From a virus, in the IMG/VR virus record IMGVR_UViG_3300031788_000002, positions 32,001 through 96,000 of that record: a DNA stretch of 64,000 nucleotides. One strand, written 5' to 3'. Of this stretch, positions 18,337-55,657 are shown piece after piece (position 1 is the stretch's first letter; each line of letters opens with the position of its first letter). The position numbers were made by a program, and so were the translations under genes. Under the pieces are notes generated by a model that saw nothing but the letters and a program-made list of their open reading frames with translations, was not told the DNA's origin and searched no databases.

Positions 18337-18678
18337 GTGGCCTCCGACAAGGACAAAAGCGAAGAACGCGCGCAGCAAACAGCGCAGATGAAAATGCGCT
18401 CGGCGATCAACGATGCCTACGCCGCGCTTCAAGGAGATGCGGCCACACAATCCTTCGTGGCATTTACTTTTGAAGAAGCCGTGGACAGCCAGATCGAACG
18501 CATTTCGGGAACCAGTACGCGCTTGCGGCCCAATGAGCTGGATCGCGTGACCGCGATTCAGAACAATTTAACCCAAGCCATTCAAGTCATTAAGCAGTCG
18601 CCCCCGTCGGCCTTCATGGCCCCCGATCCGACGCGGGACGTCAATACACCCGTTACCCCTACAGGGAGTGGATCATGA
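18337..18678 (+). CDS. hypothetical protein (probably virion-associated)
   Basis: Leaderless GTG 6 nt after TGC-TAGACT. Confidence 0.7.
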   Translation: MASDKDKSEERAQQTAQMKMRSAINDAYAALQGDAATQSFVAFTFEEAVDSQIERISGTSTRLRPNELDRVTAIQNNLTQAIQVIKQSPPSAFMAPDPTRDVNTPVTPTGSGS

Positions 18679-19274
18679 GAGCAGTGACGGCAGCAGTAGG
18701 TTCTCGTGGAATTGATGCGTTGACCCTTGTGAACACACCCGCCGTGGCCGCTGGGTTGAAGAAAAGCGGTGTTGATTTTGTTGGGCAGTACCTTGGCCGG
18801 GTTACGCCGGCGAGCGTCGCTTGCCTCTTGGAAGCCGGCTTGGCCTTTACACCGATTACTTACGCCGACATCTTCGATCCCAATGACGGGCTTGAGGTAC
18901 TGAAGCTCCTCGGTGCTCCTTCAGGATGCACGGTTTGGCTCGACGTGGAATCGGTAACGACGCTGACGGTCGCTGAATTGCAACAGAAGATCAATGCCTG
19001 GGCGAGTGCCTTGGCAGGCGCGGGGTATCAACCCGGCGTGTACGTGGGCTGCTTGAGCTTGTTGACGAGCGCGGAGCTCTACGCACTCAAGGTGGTGCGC
19101 TACTGGAAGTCGCAGAGCTGCGTACGGGATCGCTTTAACAATCTGGTCGAGCCTACATGCGGTTGGTGCATGTACCAGCTTTACCCCAGCGTTAGCTGGG
19201 CAGGGGTCTGGTCGGACGTCAACTTCGTGCAGCAAGACCATAAGGGGCGCTTGCCTGTCTTGGTGCAGGCGTAG
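18675..19274 (+). CDS. DUF1906/GH25-like glycoside hydrolase (putative muramidase)
   Basis: GID, FVGQYL, VWLDVE, PGVYVG, MYQ and DVN TIM-barrel motifs. Confidence 0.75.
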   Translation: MRAVTAAVGSRGIDALTLVNTPAVAAGLKKSGVDFVGQYLGRVTPASVACLLEAGLAFTPITYADIFDPNDGLEVLKLLGAPSGCTVWLDVESVTTLTVAELQQKINAWASALAGAGYQPGVYVGCLSLLTSAELYALKVVRYWKSQSCVRDRFNNLVEPTCGWCMYQLYPSVSWAGVWSDVNFVQQDHKGRLPVLVQA

Positions 19275-19280
19275 CTTTTC

Positions 19281-19309
19281 TTGACAAGGGATCGAACTTG
19301 TTTTAGCCT
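19281..19309 (+). promoter_or_regulatory. sigma70-type promoter
   Basis: TTGACA-N17-TAGCCT. Confidence 0.75.
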
Positions 19310-19313
19310 TCCC

Positions 19314-19394
19314 ACTCCTTCGTTGGTTCGGGTGATTCGTCGCGTGTGTGCTCTTCGAAGACCCGCTGGTTAGCTCCGGCGGGTCTTCGTCTTT
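19314..19394 (+). ncRNA. candidate small RNA with an anti-SD 5' end
   Basis: Lies between the promoter and an intrinsic terminator; no convincing ORF; begins (A)CUCCUU. Confidence 0.55.
19356..19394 (+). terminator. intrinsic terminator
   Basis: 14-bp stem CGAAGACCCGCTGG/CCGGCGGGTCTTCG followed by TCTTT. Confidence 0.75.
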
Positions 19395-19412
19395 GTGGTG
19401 TAGAATCACGCG

Positions 19413-20072
19413 GTGGCTCTCGACCTACAGATCATCCAACCGCAAAACGCGATTCCCGTTAGTCGCACCACGCTGGTGACCATCGGAGGGCTGCGCGCGC
19501 TGGATGTTTTGGGTTCGGACTTTCGCAGTGTTGATACGGTGTACATCAACGACGTGGAGAGCCCCGATGTCATCGTGGTCAGCGCAACGCGTCTCCTCGC
19601 GCAGTTGCCAAGCAGCTTGCAGAGCTTCCCCGACGTTCAAAGCGTTCAGGTACTGAGCCGCCAGCTGACCCTGTCGAAAAGCAGCGTCCTACGCTTTATC
19701 ATCGGAGATACCCCCGGTACGGTGTTTGGTATTCTTCGGTTGCTTCAGCTCTTCGTGAAAGTGCTTCTGAGTGAACCCGGCAGCGACATATTCAACAAGA
19801 CGTTGGGGGGTGCGCTCCTTCGTTCTGTAGGCACTACCTTTGGCAGCGAAGAGGGCGACAACATTCGAACCAATGCGCTGATCGCGGTAGACCGAACCTC
19901 GCGACAGATCATTTCAATTCAAAGCCGCAATGGTACGCTGCCCCGCGACGAGCGCTTGCTCAGTGCAAAGCTGATGGGCGCCACGTTTTCTCGAGCAAGC
20001 ACGTCCATGTTTCTCAGCATTGAAGTCATGTCCCAGACCGGTGTACCGGCACGAATGAACATGGAGCTATGA
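19413..20072 (+). CDS. baseplate protein (IPT-like N-terminus, gp25-like C-terminus)
   Basis: LLQLFVKVLLSEPGSD..GG...DERL pattern; precedes the wedge gene. Confidence 0.65.
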   Translation: MALDLQIIQPQNAIPVSRTTLVTIGGLRALDVLGSDFRSVDTVYINDVESPDVIVVSATRLLAQLPSSLQSFPDVQSVQVLSRQLTLSKSSVLRFIIGDTPGTVFGILRLLQLFVKVLLSEPGSDIFNKTLGGALLRSVGTTFGSEEGDNIRTNALIAVDRTSRQIISIQSRNGTLPRDERLLSAKLMGATFSRASTSMFLSIEVMSQTGVPARMNMEL

Positions 20073-39984: not shown

Positions 39985-41492
39985 GTAGTTTCATCCCGAT
40001 CAAGCTTAATCCTGTCACCGGTAACCTCGCTCAATTTGCGCTGGCTGACGCGGCAGATTTAACGTCCATTACGCGCCGAGGTGCGAGCGGAAACCTGACC
40101 ATCGGTGGCAACATCGGCGCGTCCGATAAGCTTCAACTGGGTTCCGCCGCCGGCACCGTTGAAATTCTTGGCGCCTTTCTCGTAGATGGCTCGAGCACGG
40201 TGTCCGTCAATGAGACGGTTACGGGGAACTTCACGGTTGATGGCACGGTCAACCTTGGAAATAACGCCGGGCACACCATCAACTTGGGCGGAGGTACCGC
40301 CGATACCATCGCGCAGAACGCCACCGTAGCCCCCGGCGCGGGATTGGTGAGTATTGGCTCCAGCGTTTCACAATACGAGTTGGCGCTGTGGCTGAAGTCG
40401 GTGGGGGGCGCATCGAGTGGCAACCCAGGGCTGGCCGCGTACAACTTGCAAGCTTCCGGTACCAACGCCGGTGCCTACGCAATCGGTGTGGACCGTACGC
40501 GGATTAGTCAAGCGCAAACCACCAGTACGGATCTGATGGATGCCCTGGCGGACATGAGCGCGTCCATCAGTTCTGCGGGTACCCCAACACTTCAGAACGT
40601 GTACGGCAACGGGCAGTCCATTGCAGTGACGTCGGGGCACGGGTCCATCGCGTTCTCGAACAATACAAACTCCGACACCACGCCCGTTCTTACCCTTTCG
40701 AAGGCGCCCACGTCTGCGTCCACCGGCGGCGACGCCTTTGACATCACGGTCGGCGTGAATTCGACGGGCAATGTGTTGGTCATCAACAACGCGGGCTCGG
40801 GCAATGCGCTCGACGCGCAAAAAGCGGGGGTCTCGGTTTTCAAGGTCACCGGCGCAGGGGGTATCACTGGAGCCGGCGCTTCCGGGGCCCCGGTGGCCTT
40901 GGGCGCTACCGCGGCCAGCGCCACCCTTTCGACGACGACGTCGGGCAACGTCGTGTTGAGCTCCGCGGCCGAGATCAGTTTGACCGACAGTGGTTTGACG
41001 CTAACCCTGTCCCAGTCCAGCGCCCGCGCATTGGTGGAAACCGGTACCAACCAGGTGTTCAGCGGCGTGACCAGTCTTTTGGGGGGCCTCAACGCGTTGG
41101 CCACCAAAGCTGACACCCAGGGCAACATTCAATCCTTTGTTGTTTCAAGCGGCTACACCACGGCGGTGGGCGACGTCGTCGCATTGAATTCCTCGTCTCA
41201 GCTGGTGAAGTCGACGGCGGCCGGGGCGGCCAACGTGGACAATCTGGGGTGCGCGCTCGACGTCGTCGTGGGGAACGGCACCCTGACGTGCCGCGTGGCC
41301 ATGTTGGGCGCCAAGGTGACGGTGGCAGGGCAGACGTGGACGCCGGGCGGTGCTCTCTTCGCGCCGGTGGGCACGGGGGGTCCGCCTACCCAAGCCGCGT
41401 CGAGCACCACGGGAGACTTGGTTCAGCGCGTAGGGTGGGCGGCGACGGCGACAACGTTCTACTGGGATCCCGCCGTGGGCGTGGTTCTCTGA
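39981..41492 (+). CDS. virion fibre/decoration protein
   Basis: Gly/Ala/Thr/Ser-rich; TLQNVY; C-terminal cement-like module. Confidence 0.65.
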   Translation: MSSFIPIKLNPVTGNLAQFALADAADLTSITRRGASGNLTIGGNIGASDKLQLGSAAGTVEILGAFLVDGSSTVSVNETVTGNFTVDGTVNLGNNAGHTINLGGGTADTIAQNATVAPGAGLVSIGSSVSQYELALWLKSVGGASSGNPGLAAYNLQASGTNAGAYAIGVDRTRISQAQTTSTDLMDALADMSASISSAGTPTLQNVYGNGQSIAVTSGHGSIAFSNNTNSDTTPVLTLSKAPTSASTGGDAFDITVGVNSTGNVLVINNAGSGNALDAQKAGVSVFKVTGAGGITGAGASGAPVALGATAASATLSTTTSGNVVLSSAAEISLTDSGLTLTLSQSSARALVETGTNQVFSGVTSLLGGLNALATKADTQGNIQSFVVSSGYTTAVGDVVALNSSSQLVKSTAAGAANVDNLGCALDVVVGNGTLTCRVAMLGAKVTVAGQTWTPGGALFAPVGTGGPPTQAASSTTGDLVQRVGWAATATTFYWDPAVGVVL

Positions 41493-41504
41493 TAAAGACG
41501 GAGT

Positions 41505-42182
41505 ATGGCTACTCGAAAGCTCTCGCGTGTGAAGGCCCCTCCCGCACCCGTGCCGGTGTGCACTGTAGAGGCGTGCGCCGCTGTTCCCCCGCCGGCGCCG
41601 TCTGCGCCGGTTGAGGAGACGTTGTCGAATGAACAGATGGTGGCGCTTTACAACAAATTGCGCGCGTCGGAACGAGGGGAGTACGCGCTGCAAAACGAAG
41701 AACGCCAAGCGCTGGATCGTATGGAATCTTCCCGCAACGCCCGGTGGAGAGCCCTTCGAGAGGAAGTGCCGCGCCCGACGCTAAAGGAAACGCCTTTGGT
41801 GATGGCGCAAGCGCTGGCGCCCCCCGTTAGCATTCGGCATCAAGCCGAAGATGGCAGCATCACGCTGCCCATTCCCGAAGAGCTGCGCTGGAAGTTGGCG
41901 TACCTGGAGTTGAAACGGGAGAAGGCGCTCGAAGCGGTTGTAGCGCCTCTGCGGCAGCAATATGCGGAAGCACTGAAGCGCGCCTGCGACCAAGCGCTTA
42001 CCGTATCGCCCGAGTACCGCGCTGCGGTGAACGCTGTAAATAGCGCGTCGAACGAAGCTCTTGATGTATTGGAGAAATTGATCCCCAGCACACACGCGGT
42101 TGTAACGCTCAATCATGAACAAGGGTTCGCGCAAGCGGTTGTAAACCCTGAGATGCACAGCAAGCGCTTTCTTATTACCTGA
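41505..42182 (+). CDS. coiled-coil protein (possible fibre chaperone)
   Basis: GGAG RBS; charged and helical, between fibre genes. Confidence 0.55.
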   Translation: MATRKLSRVKAPPAPVPVCTVEACAAVPPPAPSAPVEETLSNEQMVALYNKLRASERGEYALQNEERQALDRMESSRNARWRALREEVPRPTLKETPLVMAQALAPPVSIRHQAEDGSITLPIPEELRWKLAYLELKREKALEAVVAPLRQQYAEALKRACDQALTVSPEYRAAVNAVNSASNEALDVLEKLIPSTHAVVTLNHEQGFAQAVVNPEMHSKRFLIT

Positions 42183-45161: not shown

Positions 45162-45373
45162 TGCGCAGCGGCTTTCTTGCGTTGACGGGCGTTCCTTTCG
45201 GAACGCTTACGATCACCCGGGGCCTCGGGGGTTTCGGCACAGGGTTGGTGGAGCCGGTTGTAGAGGAGGGCGCGGAGCTTCCACGTCCGGCCCCGCGAGC
45301 GGTGCCCGAGAACAAGAAGGCGCCCACGGCGCTTGTTTACCAACCGATGGCTAAGAAAAAGAGGGGGCGCTAA
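45161..45373 (+). CDS. small hypothetical protein
   Basis: TAATG coupling; ITRGLG motif. Confidence 0.45.
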   Translation: MRSGFLALTGVPFGTLTITRGLGGFGTGLVEPVVEEGAELPRPAPRAVPENKKAPTALVYQPMAKKKRGR

Positions 45374-45380
45374 GCGCCCC
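45355..45380 (-). terminator. intrinsic terminator ending the replication block
   Basis: GGGGCGC-TTA-GCGCCCC followed by CTCTTTTT on the minus strand; convergence point of the two blocks. Confidence 0.65.
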
Positions 45381-45384
45381 TGTA

Positions 45385-45573
45385 TCAGTCGAGCTCCGCC
45401 CCTTGCAAACGGCGCAGGGGGGAGTCCGGCGCCCCGAAAACTTCGAGGCCCGCCAGCGCTACGATGTCCCGCAAAGACGCTTCGGGCGCCGTCGGGTCAA
45501 CGTCGATAAGATCCTCAGGCCGAGGAAGAACACAGCCCGGCCAGAGGTTCGCGCTGGCCGCTAGGCTTTTCCC
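45385..45573 (-). CDS. -1 frameshift extension of the 45561..46496 gene
   Basis: Slippery G GGA AAA at 45573-45567; -1 frame open to TGA at 45387-45385; no evident RBS-preceded start of its own. Confidence 0.7.
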   Translation of the reverse strand, partial: GKSLAASANLWPGCVLPRPEDLIDVDPTAPEASLRDIVALAGLEVFGAPDSPLRRLQGAELD

Positions 45574-46496
45574 ATGAGCGACGCCAAGAGATCTGCCGAG
45601 AGCTGCTCGTCGTAGCCCTGGCGGAGGTGCGCCTTGTAGTATTCCAGCAGTTGCGTGTGATCCATGTTCAGCGCGCGCTCGGTGAGCATCATCAGCATCA
45701 TCAACTGGACGTTCGTGAGCTTGACGCCGCCAGTTACACGCTTGTTGAGCTCGGTCACGCTGGCGGACAGCTGTTCCTGCACCAAGGTCAGCCGCTGGAT
45801 GGTCTCGGCAATTTGGAGAAGCGTGACGTTCGTCTCCCGAGCGTTGGTTCCTTGCGGCTGTTGCATGGCGGGCTGTTGAGGAAAGGGGATCGGTTGCTGC
45901 ATGGGTTGCTGCGGCACGAGTTGCGGGTTCGTCGACATACCAGGTCCCGGCATCGTCGGCATCCCGAAAGACGTCGGGGAGTTCATCGGCATCGTCGGCA
46001 TCCCGAAGGACGGCGGCGCGTTCATCGTGTTTGGCATCTGGGTAGGGATTTGTCCCGGCATCGACTGCGGTTGCGAAGGCATTTGACCGGGCGCACCCAT
46101 GTGCGGGGGGAGCATGTGCGCGGGGATCACGACAGGGACTTGCGGCCCGGGCATCTGCGGGTTGAAGCCCCCCGGTTGCTGTTGTTGCTGTGGAAAGCCG
46201 CCTTGCACCGGCTGTTGCTGGAAGGGCAGTTGCTGCGGGTTGTTCGGCATTTGGGGCGGCATCTGGGGGTTGTTGTTCATGGCAGTTCCTTTTCTCTTGT
46301 CATGCTCGATCAGCGCGTCCGCAACGGTTTGAGCGCGGGCGTCCACGCTGAGGTCATGAAATGCGATCTTTTGTTCTTCCGTGCTGCACAAACCCATCAA
46401 GTGCATGAGCCTGTACAAGCCGGCCAATTGATACTGTGTTTTGAGGGCAGCGACATCGCGGGGGGCGGTATCGATGCTTACAAGGGCGATTCCCAC
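45561..46496 (-). CDS. Pro/Gln/Met-rich low-complexity protein with C-terminal coiled coil
   Basis: AGGAG RBS; GTG overlapping the upstream TAG; 311 aa. Confidence 0.8.
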   Translation of the reverse strand: MGIALVSIDTAPRDVAALKTQYQLAGLYRLMHLMGLCSTEEQKIAFHDLSVDARAQTVADALIEHDKRKGTAMNNNPQMPPQMPNNPQQLPFQQQPVQGGFPQQQQQPGGFNPQMPGPQVPVVIPAHMLPPHMGAPGQMPSQPQSMPGQIPTQMPNTMNAPPSFGMPTMPMNSPTSFGMPTMPGPGMSTNPQLVPQQPMQQPIPFPQQPAMQQPQGTNARETNVTLLQIAETIQRLTLVQEQLSASVTELNKRVTGGVKLTNVQLMMLMMLTERALNMDHTQLLEYYKAHLRQGYDEQLSADLLASLMGKA

Positions 46497-53152: not shown

Positions 53153-54511
53153 TTACTGACCCTGCTGCCCGGAGAAGGGGGGCCAGCCGGGCAGGTTCAT
53201 AGAGGGGGGCGAGAAGGCGGGCTGTGCCTGTGAAGCGGGCCAGATGGGCATTCCCCCGTTTGGCATAGCGGGCGCTGCCATCGATGCGGGGGGCGTTGGC
53301 ATCAGGGGTTGCTGCGCAAAGGTTGGCGGGGTGAAGACGGGGTACGGCGCCGGTGCGGCAGGCATCGCGGTCTGCATGGGGGGATTGAAGGTTGGGTACG
53401 CGACCGGTACCTGCGTCTGGGAGGCAGGGCCCTTAGGAATGCCCCAAAGCTTGCGCTGTTCTTCGAGGGGCGTCGGCGCGAACTTCGCATCGAGGCGCAA
53501 CGGTTTGATGTTGGCCGCCGTCGCTGCGTCCACTTGAATTGGTCGCGGGTTCGATCGGTTGGTGGGCAACAACGCGGTCTGGTTGTTCTTACCCGTAGGG
53601 ATCGCCGTGAGCTCGAGGTCTTCATCGAAGAGCGTCGCGCGCTGGGGCGTCAGGTTGTACTGAGCGCACGCACGGCACGACAAGACCTCACGAACGAAGA
53701 GCACTTGCCCGCAGAGGGCGCAGCCGTAGGGTGCGTTCAGCTTTTTGGTCTGCTCTGCATTCAAGGTTGTCGTGCGCAGGTCGACAACCAGTGCGCCACA
53801 CGAGGGGTTACCGCACATCTTGGCCGTGCAGATGATGGAGGCTTGGCTACCGCACGTTACACAATCTGTGCAGATGGTTTGGTCCATGTAGCCAAAGAGT
53901 TGTTCCTTGTGCATGGCGAACATCGGCCAGGGGATTAGATTTCCGATTTTGTACTCGTACTGGCCGACCCGTTGGTCATTGGGCGCTACGGGAACCCAGT
54001 CGTAGTACGGCTGTCCCGTTGAGGGGTTTCTGGCGTCGCTCGGAAGTTTGCACCACAGACCGTAGTCGTACCAAGTAAAGCCGAACTGCGGGGTGTTCGA
54101 CATGTACTTACCACGATCTTCTTTTCCAGAGCCCCAGTACATGTCACATCCAAGGCAAGGCTCACGACGATTCTTGTCCATGCGCAGAGGCCCTGCGCAG
54201 CACACCGCCGTCTTTTTACTCGTGGGGTGACGGTGTACGTAAAAGGGGAAGTACTCGAGCGTCTCCTCTACAATCGTGTTGTCCTCGAGCACGTAGGGGA
54301 CGACGTACTTTCCCGGGATGAAGCGACCCATGCGTGGATGATCCGGGAGGCGGAACGTATCCTTCCAGTAGGGGCCTCCCCCGCCAGCCTTCCGCGATTC
54401 CCGTGACTCCGCCTCACACTGCTTACGGTAGTGCTCCCGTTGATTCGCCGTGCCACCCCCGAAGGGCGTGACATGCGTCAAATCCCGCGGGTCTTTTCCA
54501 AATGCTGCCAT
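53153..54511 (-). CDS. putative ssDNA-binding protein with multiple Zn ribbons and a Pro/Gln/Met-rich tail
   Basis: H..C...C..C (gp32-like Zn site) plus four further CxxC-type pairs; strong GAGGAG RBS; lies between primase and polA. Confidence 0.55.
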   Translation of the reverse strand: MAAFGKDPRDLTHVTPFGGGTANQREHYRKQCEAESRESRKAGGGGPYWKDTFRLPDHPRMGRFIPGKYVVPYVLEDNTIVEETLEYFPFYVHRHPTSKKTAVCCAGPLRMDKNRREPCLGCDMYWGSGKEDRGKYMSNTPQFGFTWYDYGLWCKLPSDARNPSTGQPYYDWVPVAPNDQRVGQYEYKIGNLIPWPMFAMHKEQLFGYMDQTICTDCVTCGSQASIICTAKMCGNPSCGALVVDLRTTTLNAEQTKKLNAPYGCALCGQVLFVREVLSCRACAQYNLTPQRATLFDEDLELTAIPTGKNNQTALLPTNRSNPRPIQVDAATAANIKPLRLDAKFAPTPLEEQRKLWGIPKGPASQTQVPVAYPTFNPPMQTAMPAAPAPYPVFTPPTFAQQPLMPTPPASMAAPAMPNGGMPIWPASQAQPAFSPPSMNLPGWPPFSGQQGQ

Positions 54512-54529
54512 ACGTTCTCCTCTGGCCCT

Positions 54530-55657
54530 TTAGGCGTTACTTACAGGGACTGTGCCCTCTTTTTTGTTAAGCCAAGTGCTGTACGGTACGGCGTCGAAGA
54601 GCTGTTCCCAGACTTCTTCCGCCGTTAAGTTATCGGGTTGGGCATCTTCGTCATCGAGCAAACGGGGTGGGTATTCAATGACGTGGGCGTTGAGAGTGCT
54701 TCCCAGGGAGGGGCCGTCGTAGCGGCGGTACGCGCGCATTAGTTCCTCCCCGGGGTCTTGGTGAAAGCGGATCTGGTAGGGGTCCACGGCGTAGCGCTTT
54801 GTTTGCTGAAGAACTTGCCCGGCGTTGTACGTGCCACGGATTCCCGCGGCGTTGTTATCGAGGAAGAAGTACACTTTCCCGCCAAACTTTTCAATCAGCC
54901 AGCGGTGCTCCCAGGAGAAGTAAGAGCCCATCAAGCCGATCACATTCTTGATGCCGGCTTGCCAGACCCACATGCACGCTTTGTATCCTTCTACAACAAC
55001 CAAAAAGCTATGCTCGGGTCTGTGCACAAGGAGAGAAGGAAGCACGTTATGCAAGTTGTAAAGGACCTTGCGTCGATCCCAGGGGCCGCGCTCGGGTAGA
55101 CCCCACAAGAGGTATTCCTTGTTGTAGATTTTGTAGCGGGGGCGCACATCCTTGTGGAGCGTACGTCCGTTGATACCCACGAGGCGCCCGAGGGTATCGC
55201 GAATGGGGTACGTGATGCGGTCGTGCCAATGGTCAAAGCCGACGTCGAAGTAGCGCAGCGTTTCTTCCTTGAACCCGGCCATTAGAAGTGAAGGGATGGT
55301 GTATCCATCAAAAAAGCCAAGGGCGCCTTCAGGCAGAGGCGCCAGGCTGTAGACCCCCGGGTCGAGGGGGTCAGGCCCCGGGGGGGTTGTACGCCGCGCG
55401 GCCTCGATGAGGTCTTTGTACTGAAGGTCGATGAGCTGATGGGAAACGCCTACCCCGCGCAAAAAGGTGAGCAGGTTTCCCTTGGCGTGACAGGAGTGGC
55501 AGAAGTAAACGCCGTTCAGGATGTTCATCGCGAAGGACGCGGTGGCATCATCATGAAACGGGCACAGGGCCATCACGTTCTCCGAACCGGAGGGCCGTAC
55601 GTTCTCGAGGAACTTGTAAGCGATATCCAGAATCTCGGAGTGAACGTCGTAGGTCAA
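54530..55657 (-). CDS. DnaG-type primase (CHC2 Zn finger and TOPRIM)
   Basis: CPFH...CHSC; RITYPIRD..G.LVG..GR; RYK; LYNL; VVEG. Confidence 0.9.
   Translation of the reverse strand: MTYDVHSEILDIAYKFLENVRPSGSENVMALCPFHDDATASFAMNILNGVYFCHSCHAKGNLLTFLRGVGVSHQLIDLQYKDLIEAARRTTPPGPDPLDPGVYSLAPLPEGALGFFDGYTIPSLLMAGFKEETLRYFDVGFDHWHDRITYPIRDTLGRLVGINGRTLHKDVRPRYKIYNKEYLLWGLPERGPWDRRKVLYNLHNVLPSLLVHRPEHSFLVVVEGYKACMWVWQAGIKNVIGLMGSYFSWEHRWLIEKFGGKVYFFLDNNAAGIRGTYNAGQVLQQTKRYAVDPYQIRFHQDPGEELMRAYRRYDGPSLGSTLNAHVIEYPPRLLDDEDAQPDNLTAEEVWEQLFDAVPYSTWLNKKEGTVPVSNA

Follow-up and report, generated by a model that had tools for sequence, protein, structure and literature searches.

A predicted small RNA gene at the head of a phage structural operon belongs to a conserved family with complementarity to a distant phage gene

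Organization of the locus and its promoter

The stretch of DNA analysed here (64,000 nt, hereafter the window) comprises bases 32001–96000 of the 167,481-bp IMG/VR record IMGVR_UViG_3300031788_000002, which is linear, ~89 % complete and ~58 % GC; positions are given in window coordinates. The unit of interest sits in a 138-nt gap (19275–19412). Upstream of the gap lies the gene for a 199-aa Rv2525c-like glycoside hydrolase or lysin (18675–19274; Pfam PF08924), whose end overlaps a weak hairpin of 7 pairs followed by TAGCTTTTCT (19252–19271, +), which was picked up in a terminator scan and is possibly the hydrolase gene's own weak terminator. Downstream of the gap is the gene for a 219-aa protein (19413–20072, +), the first of a 22-gene plus-strand structural block that includes a baseplate-J-like protein and collagen-like tail fibres. 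The 219-aa protein itself had no sequence match in Pfam, PHROG or PDB.

Within the gap, the −35 hexamer TTGACA (19281–19286, +) and the −10 hexamer TAGCCT (19304–19309, +) are separated by a 17-nt spacer and constitute a predicted promoter, P1, recognized by its sequence and by the conserved position of the −35 hexamer and conserved spacing of the −10 hexamer in relatives. The predicted small RNA (sRNA) would extend from 19314 to 19398 (+), giving a length of ~80–85 nt; we infer both of its ends, placing the start 5–7 nt past the P1 −10 hexamer and the end within the U tract. Its 5′ region, (A)CUCCUUCGUUGGUUCGGGUG (19314–19334, +), is predicted to be single-stranded (unpaired probability 0.83) and occupies the same position as the seed with which the RNAs of relatives are predicted to pair with og104, a gene described below; CUCCUUCGUUGGUUCGGG begins at 19315. 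Directly 5′ of the terminator there is a GUGUGCUCUU patch (19347–19355, +), and in an alignment all relatives of the window's clade have a CUCC-type patch here. The intrinsic terminator (19356–19398, +), detected by terminator scan and by folding, is composed of a 14-bp stem, the loop UUAGCU and then UCUUUGUGG; in its hairpin (19356–19389) 10 of the 14 pairs are G-C, and the 6-nt loop and stem are followed by TCTTTGTGGT. Just downstream is P2 (19401–19415, +), the leaderless promoter of the 219-aa gene, in which the −10 box TAGAAT (19401–19406) is separated by six nucleotides from the GTG start codon at 19413.

The predicted fold of an 84-nt RNA from this unit has an energy of −33.8 kcal/mol (z −3.8), nearly all of which is supplied by the terminator. 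A prior reading of the locus that used the letters alone (the sequence-only reading) had described about 40 nt of weakly structured RNA followed by a 14-bp hairpin and a U tract, and all of these elements are found where it placed them. Several other functions were considered for the unit and dropped. No alternative fold of the riboswitch or attenuator type rivals the −28 kcal/mol terminator, and that reading was abandoned on this ground. The sole open reading frame in the unit is a 30-codon frame that begins inside the −35 box; a small-peptide reading was dropped since no frame is conserved, and the indels and the length range of the family RNAs (55–93 nt) appear incompatible with one. A CRISPR-repeat mimic, a replication-origin primer RNA and a packaging RNA were likewise dropped, given stems that are wholly different between relatives and a structure that is too simple; the GC skew of the record, which has no inflection, was also counted against these three.

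The promoter is unusual for its genome. TTGACA-N17-TAGCCT, which the sequence-only reading had singled out as the best sigma70 match, is indeed present, and no other perfect TTGACA-N17-TAnnnT occurs in the 167-kb genome; it is also the sole intergenic TTGAC-N16/17-nAnnnT genome-wide with a terminator after it. Sigma70-like sequences (TTGACA with at most one mismatch, N16–18, TAnnnT) are depleted about threefold across the genome, with 10 observed versus 29±4 in shuffles. Many genes instead have TGnTAnnnT positioned 6–7 nt ahead of a start codon that lacks a Shine-Dalgarno (SD) sequence, and this proximity implies many leaderless mRNAs. Both genes flanking this region (18337 and 19413) carry a leaderless-type promoter box, and an SD-like word is found upstream of 68 of the 168 genes of this phage (about 40 %). 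A search for tRNAs and tmRNA returned none. Rfam at gathering score produced zero matches in the whole window, while at permissive E-values the best hit in 19200–19500 was ctRNA_pGA1, with 22 bits against a 45-bit cut-off and in the terminator-like part only; the Rfam comparison that had been suggested for the small RNA thus returned no family. The intrinsic terminators of this phage have a characteristic tail in common, TTCTTTAGCC, 3′ of the hairpin (108681–108718, +; −17688 to −17735, −; −768 to −825, −; 45350–45385, −; all in window coordinates). The same AGCC tail is also found 3′ of the sRNA terminator in most relatives and is absent in the window's clade.

Conservation of the unit in related phages

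Homologues of the 219-aa protein numbered 249, every one of them metagenomic. We took 21 viral and 80 metagenome loci, which gave 86 distinct regions upstream of homologues of the 219-aa gene. The motif (C)TTGAC was present 116–170 nt ahead of the start codon in 43 of these 86 distinct relatives, with the C preceding TTGAC in 36 of the 43. On the sense strand, 41 of 47 TTGAC occurrences fell in two 30-nt bins, 121–180 nt before the start, while the antisense control was flat. A −10-like nAnnnT followed at a spacer of 16 or 17 in 26 of 42 relatives, compared with a mean of 2.2 (maximum 8) at control offsets, so that the promoter, whose non-conservation the sequence-only reading had said would count against it, is retained in much of the family. 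About 36 relatives have a GC-rich hairpin (−17 to −28 kcal/mol) and a T tract, and RNAalifold applied to 30 homologues returned a stem of 11 pairs, 10 of which show compensatory changes. The conservation of the P1-terminator cassette in relatives argues that it did not arise by chance, and it lends support to the proposal of a putative free-standing promoter-to-terminator unit of ~80 nt.

The predicted RNAs of the family are 55–93 nt long (median 68). Family-wide, transcript positions from about +5 to +16 are 65–77 % pyrimidine; C makes up 48 % and G 9 % of the terminator loops. The RNA body was not more structured than shuffles, and a 5′ hairpin was unsupported (mean z −0.17, p = 0.35). The pentamer GACGC is enriched at the RNA 5′ end, occurring in 10 of 31 family RNAs versus 0.9 expected, and one subfamily has an invariant 21-nt 5′ block (GACGCUUCCCCUCAGGAGCAC) amid a spacer, a loop and synonymous sites that vary.

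The unit is single-copy in each genome examined. Relatives without it (L008, L031–33 and L036–39) keep the leaderless promoter, which there follows immediately on the upstream gene, and P2, in the form TGnTAGAAT or TAGACT followed after N6–7 by the start codon, is found in most relatives, those lacking the unit included. Because P2 is present in these unit-less relatives, the unit is best regarded as a separable module and P2 as the universal promoter; the earlier remark that the next gene has its own −10 box (TAGAAT, 19401) therefore holds well beyond this phage. In some relatives an HNH-type homing-endonuclease gene has been inserted right after P2 (L108:1500–2139, equivalent to G003:4719–5357; also in the upstream regions of L017, L024 and L025). 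The first four codons of the 219-aa gene are duplicated at the start of the inserted gene, which begins with MAVD; behind it, the 219-aa gene restarts without a −10 box of its own. In G003 the sRNA unit still stands in front of P2 despite this insertion.

The window's clade consists of relatives with 73–78 % protein identity (L201, L202, L204, L029, L028 and L007). It keeps P1, the terminator and P2, with −10 versions TAGGAT, TAGCAT, TACTCT and TAGTAT, and the RNA body diverges; the pieces in common are GYUGGYUCGUGC and the CUCC-type patch before the terminator. DNA and protein searches found no relatives among cultured phages. There was also no match in GTDB representative genomes, and hence no clue to the host. 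The element would thus be an sRNA gene family of large (about 100–190 kb) uncultured phages from sediments and soils, with no Rfam match and no cultured relative.

Complementarity to og104 and its loss in this phage

For a comparative target search, genes were called in the whole records of eight relatives and grouped into reciprocal-best-hit orthogroups. Nine genomes were included in the search, and each genome's own RNA 5′ body was scored against every initiation region, from −40 to +40. One orthogroup, og104, reached a mean z of −2.96 over six genomes, whereas the best orthogroup in 25 runs with shuffled seeds averaged −1.10±0.19, with a minimum of −1.66. In G009, the RNA segment CGACGCUCUUCAG is perfectly complementary over 13 nt to CUGAAGAGCGUCG, at −21 to −9 relative to the og104 ATG. 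In G008, CGGUGCCCAUGCCG matches CGGCAUGGGCACCG perfectly over 14 nt, from −4 to +10, thereby spanning the ATG. The match in G013 is between ACGACGCGUUCC and GGAACGCGUCGU (12 nt perfect, −25 to −14) and lies beside the SD, as does that in G003, where ACAGCG(C)UCCCCUCAGGG could form 17 bp with one bulge (11 nt perfect) with CCCUGAGGGGACGCUGU. In each of these four genomes og104 ranked top among 134–194 initiation regions, the runner-up complement was 8–9 nt, and non-cognate combinations of sRNA and target gave at most 9 nt. The four pairing sequences are all different; since each is a perfect complement of its own target, the RNA and og104 appear to have co-varied.

Other relatives give a less clear picture. 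Hand alignment suggested 11 bp with one bulge in G007, 12 of 13 positions in G005 and two 6-nt blocks in G012, and the perfect stretches computed for these three genomes were only 5–7 nt. G006 and G014 have weak complementarity to og104 only. Wherever the match is clear, the RNA segment involved begins at about +1. Moreover, the og104 targets share GCGUC, the complement of GACGC, which accounts both for the excess of GACGC in the RNA 5′ ends and for the invariant 5′ block of the subfamily.

The og104 product is a protein of about 135 aa (133–144) that is Zn-ribbon-like and has invariant EPWR, C, CxxCG and H in an alignment (G009:48590–48991; G008:13553–13987; G003:31869–32279; G013:113422–113829; and others). 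It belongs to no Pfam family; the RNA-polymerase-binding protein RbpA was a weak match in one of seven members (E = 0.005), and an AlphaFold model of moderate confidence (pLDDT 67) had no fold match in PDB. Lying 19–36 kb from the unit on the opposite strand, the gene closes the replication block. It comes so directly after the preceding ORF that no room is left for a promoter of its own. Because the complementarity of the RNA 5′ end co-varies with the initiation region of one distant gene, the simplest reading is that the family consists of trans-acting, gene-specific antisense sRNAs. Repression would be the direction of this regulation, which we infer solely from the position of the site.

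The genome analysed here appears to lack the target. Searches of the record (89 % complete) by tblastn, local hmmsearch and profile search did not find og104. By synteny with relatives, its slot (45162–45560, −) is intact and contains ~180 nt after a 331-aa gene and a terminator, with nothing else. In G010 and G011, records of the closest viral relatives, og104 is missing and the slot is again intact. The slot is occupied by og104 in G012, which belongs to another clade; the complete genome G002 has neither the unit nor og104. The 331-aa replication-block gene ends with a G GGA AAA slippery site, a stop codon and a GC hairpin (45355–45580, −), an arrangement conserved in G010 (41260–41600). 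The ~60-codon extension that follows is conserved in G010 and more loosely in G011 (54150–55300), and in other clades og104 comes after this extension.

Searches for a substitute target were negative. RNAduplex against the 168 initiation regions of the phage's own genome gave a best energy of −24.0 kcal/mol, compared with −25.0±2.1 for shuffled seeds, and ungapped complements of at least 10 nt in that genome numbered 577 versus 423±99 in shuffles. A comparative search within the window's clade (G000, G010 and G011) yielded −2.16 against a null of −1.86±0.33, which is not significant. The sequence-only reading had found no long complementary target in the window, and this extends to the whole genome. 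Its proposal of a trans-acting sRNA is supported for the family, through the co-varying complementarity to og104, and not for this particular RNA, for which no target beats shuffles. A 12-bp complement (with one G·U) to CUUCGUUGGUUC occurs at −11223 to −11212 (genome 20777–20788, +), within an intergenic region of 111 nt, where it immediately precedes AAGGAG-N4-GTG and a mini-ORF of 15 codons; chance alone should produce roughly one match of this kind in each genome, so it is at chance level. Another chance-level match (~0.7 expected) is at 42087–42099 (+), where 13 nt are perfectly complementary to CGCGUGUGUGCU in the RNA body; it falls within the coding region 41505–42182, ~85 nt ahead of the start of the next gene. 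Given the loss of og104 in the window's clade and the divergence of the seed, the RNA here would be an orphan, either retargeted to another phage or host mRNA or vestigial.

Competing explanations and relation to known regulators

We consider it probable, on balance, that the unit is a member of a conserved single-copy family of phage sRNAs that pair with og104, and that in this phage og104 has been lost and the RNA orphaned. According to this model, the sigma70-type promoter P1, with a strong −35 and a weak −10, would produce an RNA of ~80 nt whose 5′ part is pyrimidine-rich with little structure and whose 3′ end is set by a strong intrinsic terminator, which adjoins the leaderless promoter of the structural operon on its upstream side. 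In the family, the first 12–17 nt of the RNA would base-pair with the translation-initiation region of og104 and block ribosome access, perhaps with mRNA decay, and the level of og104 would thereby be set apart from that of the rest of its operon. In the window's clade, the terminator may still keep read-through transcription away from the leaderless promoter.

A vestigial RNA with an insulating terminator is a serious alternative in this clade, although we regard it as rather unlikely that the unit is now a terminator or insulator only, with the hairpin halting transcription that arrives from the lysin gene and so giving the leaderless P2 mRNA a clean start, and with P1 a relic. Such a role fits the loss of the target gene and the failure to find a replacement, the fast divergence of the RNA body among relatives of 73–78 % identity, the loss of the hairpin in relative L030, and the fact that terminators in this phage generally consist of a hairpin with TTCTTTAGCC. 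However, a perfect TTGACA-N17-TAGnnT has been kept in the window's phage, L201, L204, L029 and L007 though spacer and body diverge, which argues that P1 is still under selection, and the short cores GYUGGYUCGUGC and CUCC are shared within the clade. It is quite improbable that the unit is a cis-acting leader of the late operon, comparable to the lambda PR′-6S RNA-tR′ arrangement, in which an antiterminator reading a 5′ RNA or DNA motif would let polymerase into the structural genes. The unit is always on the same strand and directly upstream of the structural operon, even where a homing endonuclease follows P2, and some relatives have a possible boxB-like mini-hairpin (GCUUC-CCCUCA-GGAGC), both of which favour a leader. 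Yet P2 is universal and suffices in unit-less relatives, there is one unit per genome despite several late operons, and no Q family was detected, neither PF03589 nor PF06530 matching the 167-kb record (89 % complete) at E≤1. Furthermore, no fold competes with the terminator at −28 kcal/mol, the RNA body is no more structured than shuffles, and a leader would leave the co-varying complementarity to og104 unexplained.

That complementarity could also have arisen at the DNA level, if the shared 11–17-nt sequence were an operator, with one DNA-binding protein of the phage, possibly og104, occupying both the copy at the P1 start site and the copy ahead of og104. The two copies form a direct repeat in genome coordinates, and og104 is Zn-ribbon-like, both of which fit an operator. 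We nonetheless judge it very improbable: the location of the site varies between −27 and +18 with respect to the og104 ATG and is always inside the ribosome-binding window, there is no promoter space upstream of og104, the imperfect cases in the hand alignment have single-nucleotide bulges and U·G pairs of the sort that RNA duplexes tolerate, and the unit has the complete anatomy of a terminated sRNA gene. The sequence-only reading had favoured an abundant anti-SD RNA that masks AAGGAG-type ribosome-binding sites generally and spares leaderless phage mRNAs. CUCCUU at the start of the RNA is a perfect complement of AAGGAG, leaderless genes are numerous in this phage, pyrimidines abound in the 5′ regions throughout the family, the terminator loops have a C content of nearly half, and the distant relative L027 carries CACCUCCUUUCU. 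The seed, whose conservation that reading had named as a check, speaks against it, as CUCCUU is unique to this phage even among its closest relatives (73–78 % identity), and 8 of 31 family RNAs contain a 5-mer from the 16S 3′ tail, versus 7.9±2.3 in composition-matched shuffles. In addition, the visible targets in the family are gene-specific sequences beside or over the ribosome-binding site of one phage gene, and the 68 of 168 phage genes with an SD-like word would be hit too. We see only a slim chance that generic masking is correct. A chance just as slim attaches to a variant in which, after loss of the target, the RNA of this clade was re-aimed at SDs generally through the 5′ CUCCUU and the CUCC-type patch, so that SD-led host and early phage mRNAs would be damped and leaderless structural mRNAs would escape; if true, the re-aimed RNA would be a phage competitor of the 16S anti-SD.

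On the favoured reading, that of a gene-specific sRNA family, the family is new and is, as far as its sequences indicate, of a known kind of regulator. Enterobacterial sRNAs of the RybB and OmrA/B type are trans-encoded and have a 5′-terminal seed and a Rho-independent terminator. The unit resembles them in having its own promoter, a predicted length of ~60–90 nt, an unstructured 5′ seed and a terminator hairpin with a U tail, and the family also resembles them in pairing, as predicted, at or next to the ribosome-binding site or start codon of an mRNA encoded elsewhere. In contrast to that type, it has no sequence or Rfam relationship to them, is encoded by large uncultured phages, and has as its visible target a phage gene rather than a host gene, with the window's member lacking a visible target. 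RsaE and RoxS are C-rich sRNAs of Firmicutes with UCCC motifs, and the family shares with them pyrimidine- or C-rich unpaired stretches and C-rich hairpin loops. Unlike RsaE and RoxS, it has no homology to them, its 5′ hairpin is not statistically supported, and relatives pair through longer gene-specific sequence, not just with G-rich SD cores. Lambda 6S RNA and StxS are short PR′ transcripts that arise by termination at tR′, upstream of the late genes. Here too a constitutive-looking promoter and a strong terminator lie immediately upstream of late or structural genes and would give a short RNA able to act in trans. The two arrangements differ in that the late operon here has a leaderless promoter after the terminator, the unit is dispensable in some relatives, and no Q-type antiterminator family is detectable. 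StxS is a 74-nt trans-acting sRNA, and phage examples of base-pairing sRNAs have been compiled in a review (PMC12197685).

The present family would be an undescribed one, defined from sequence alone by its promoter, 5′ seed, terminator and specific phage target, og104. To our knowledge, base-pairing sRNAs have seldom been described in virulent or very large phages, and hardly any of them has a target supported by co-variation. For annotation, the family would account for the conserved gap of 138 nt that precedes the structural operon, and the conspicuous "anti-SD" word in that gap would be incidental. More broadly, it would provide a testable case of a phage controlling its own operon-distal gene by RNA, and the window's clade, having retained the RNA after loss of its target, would constitute a natural experiment.
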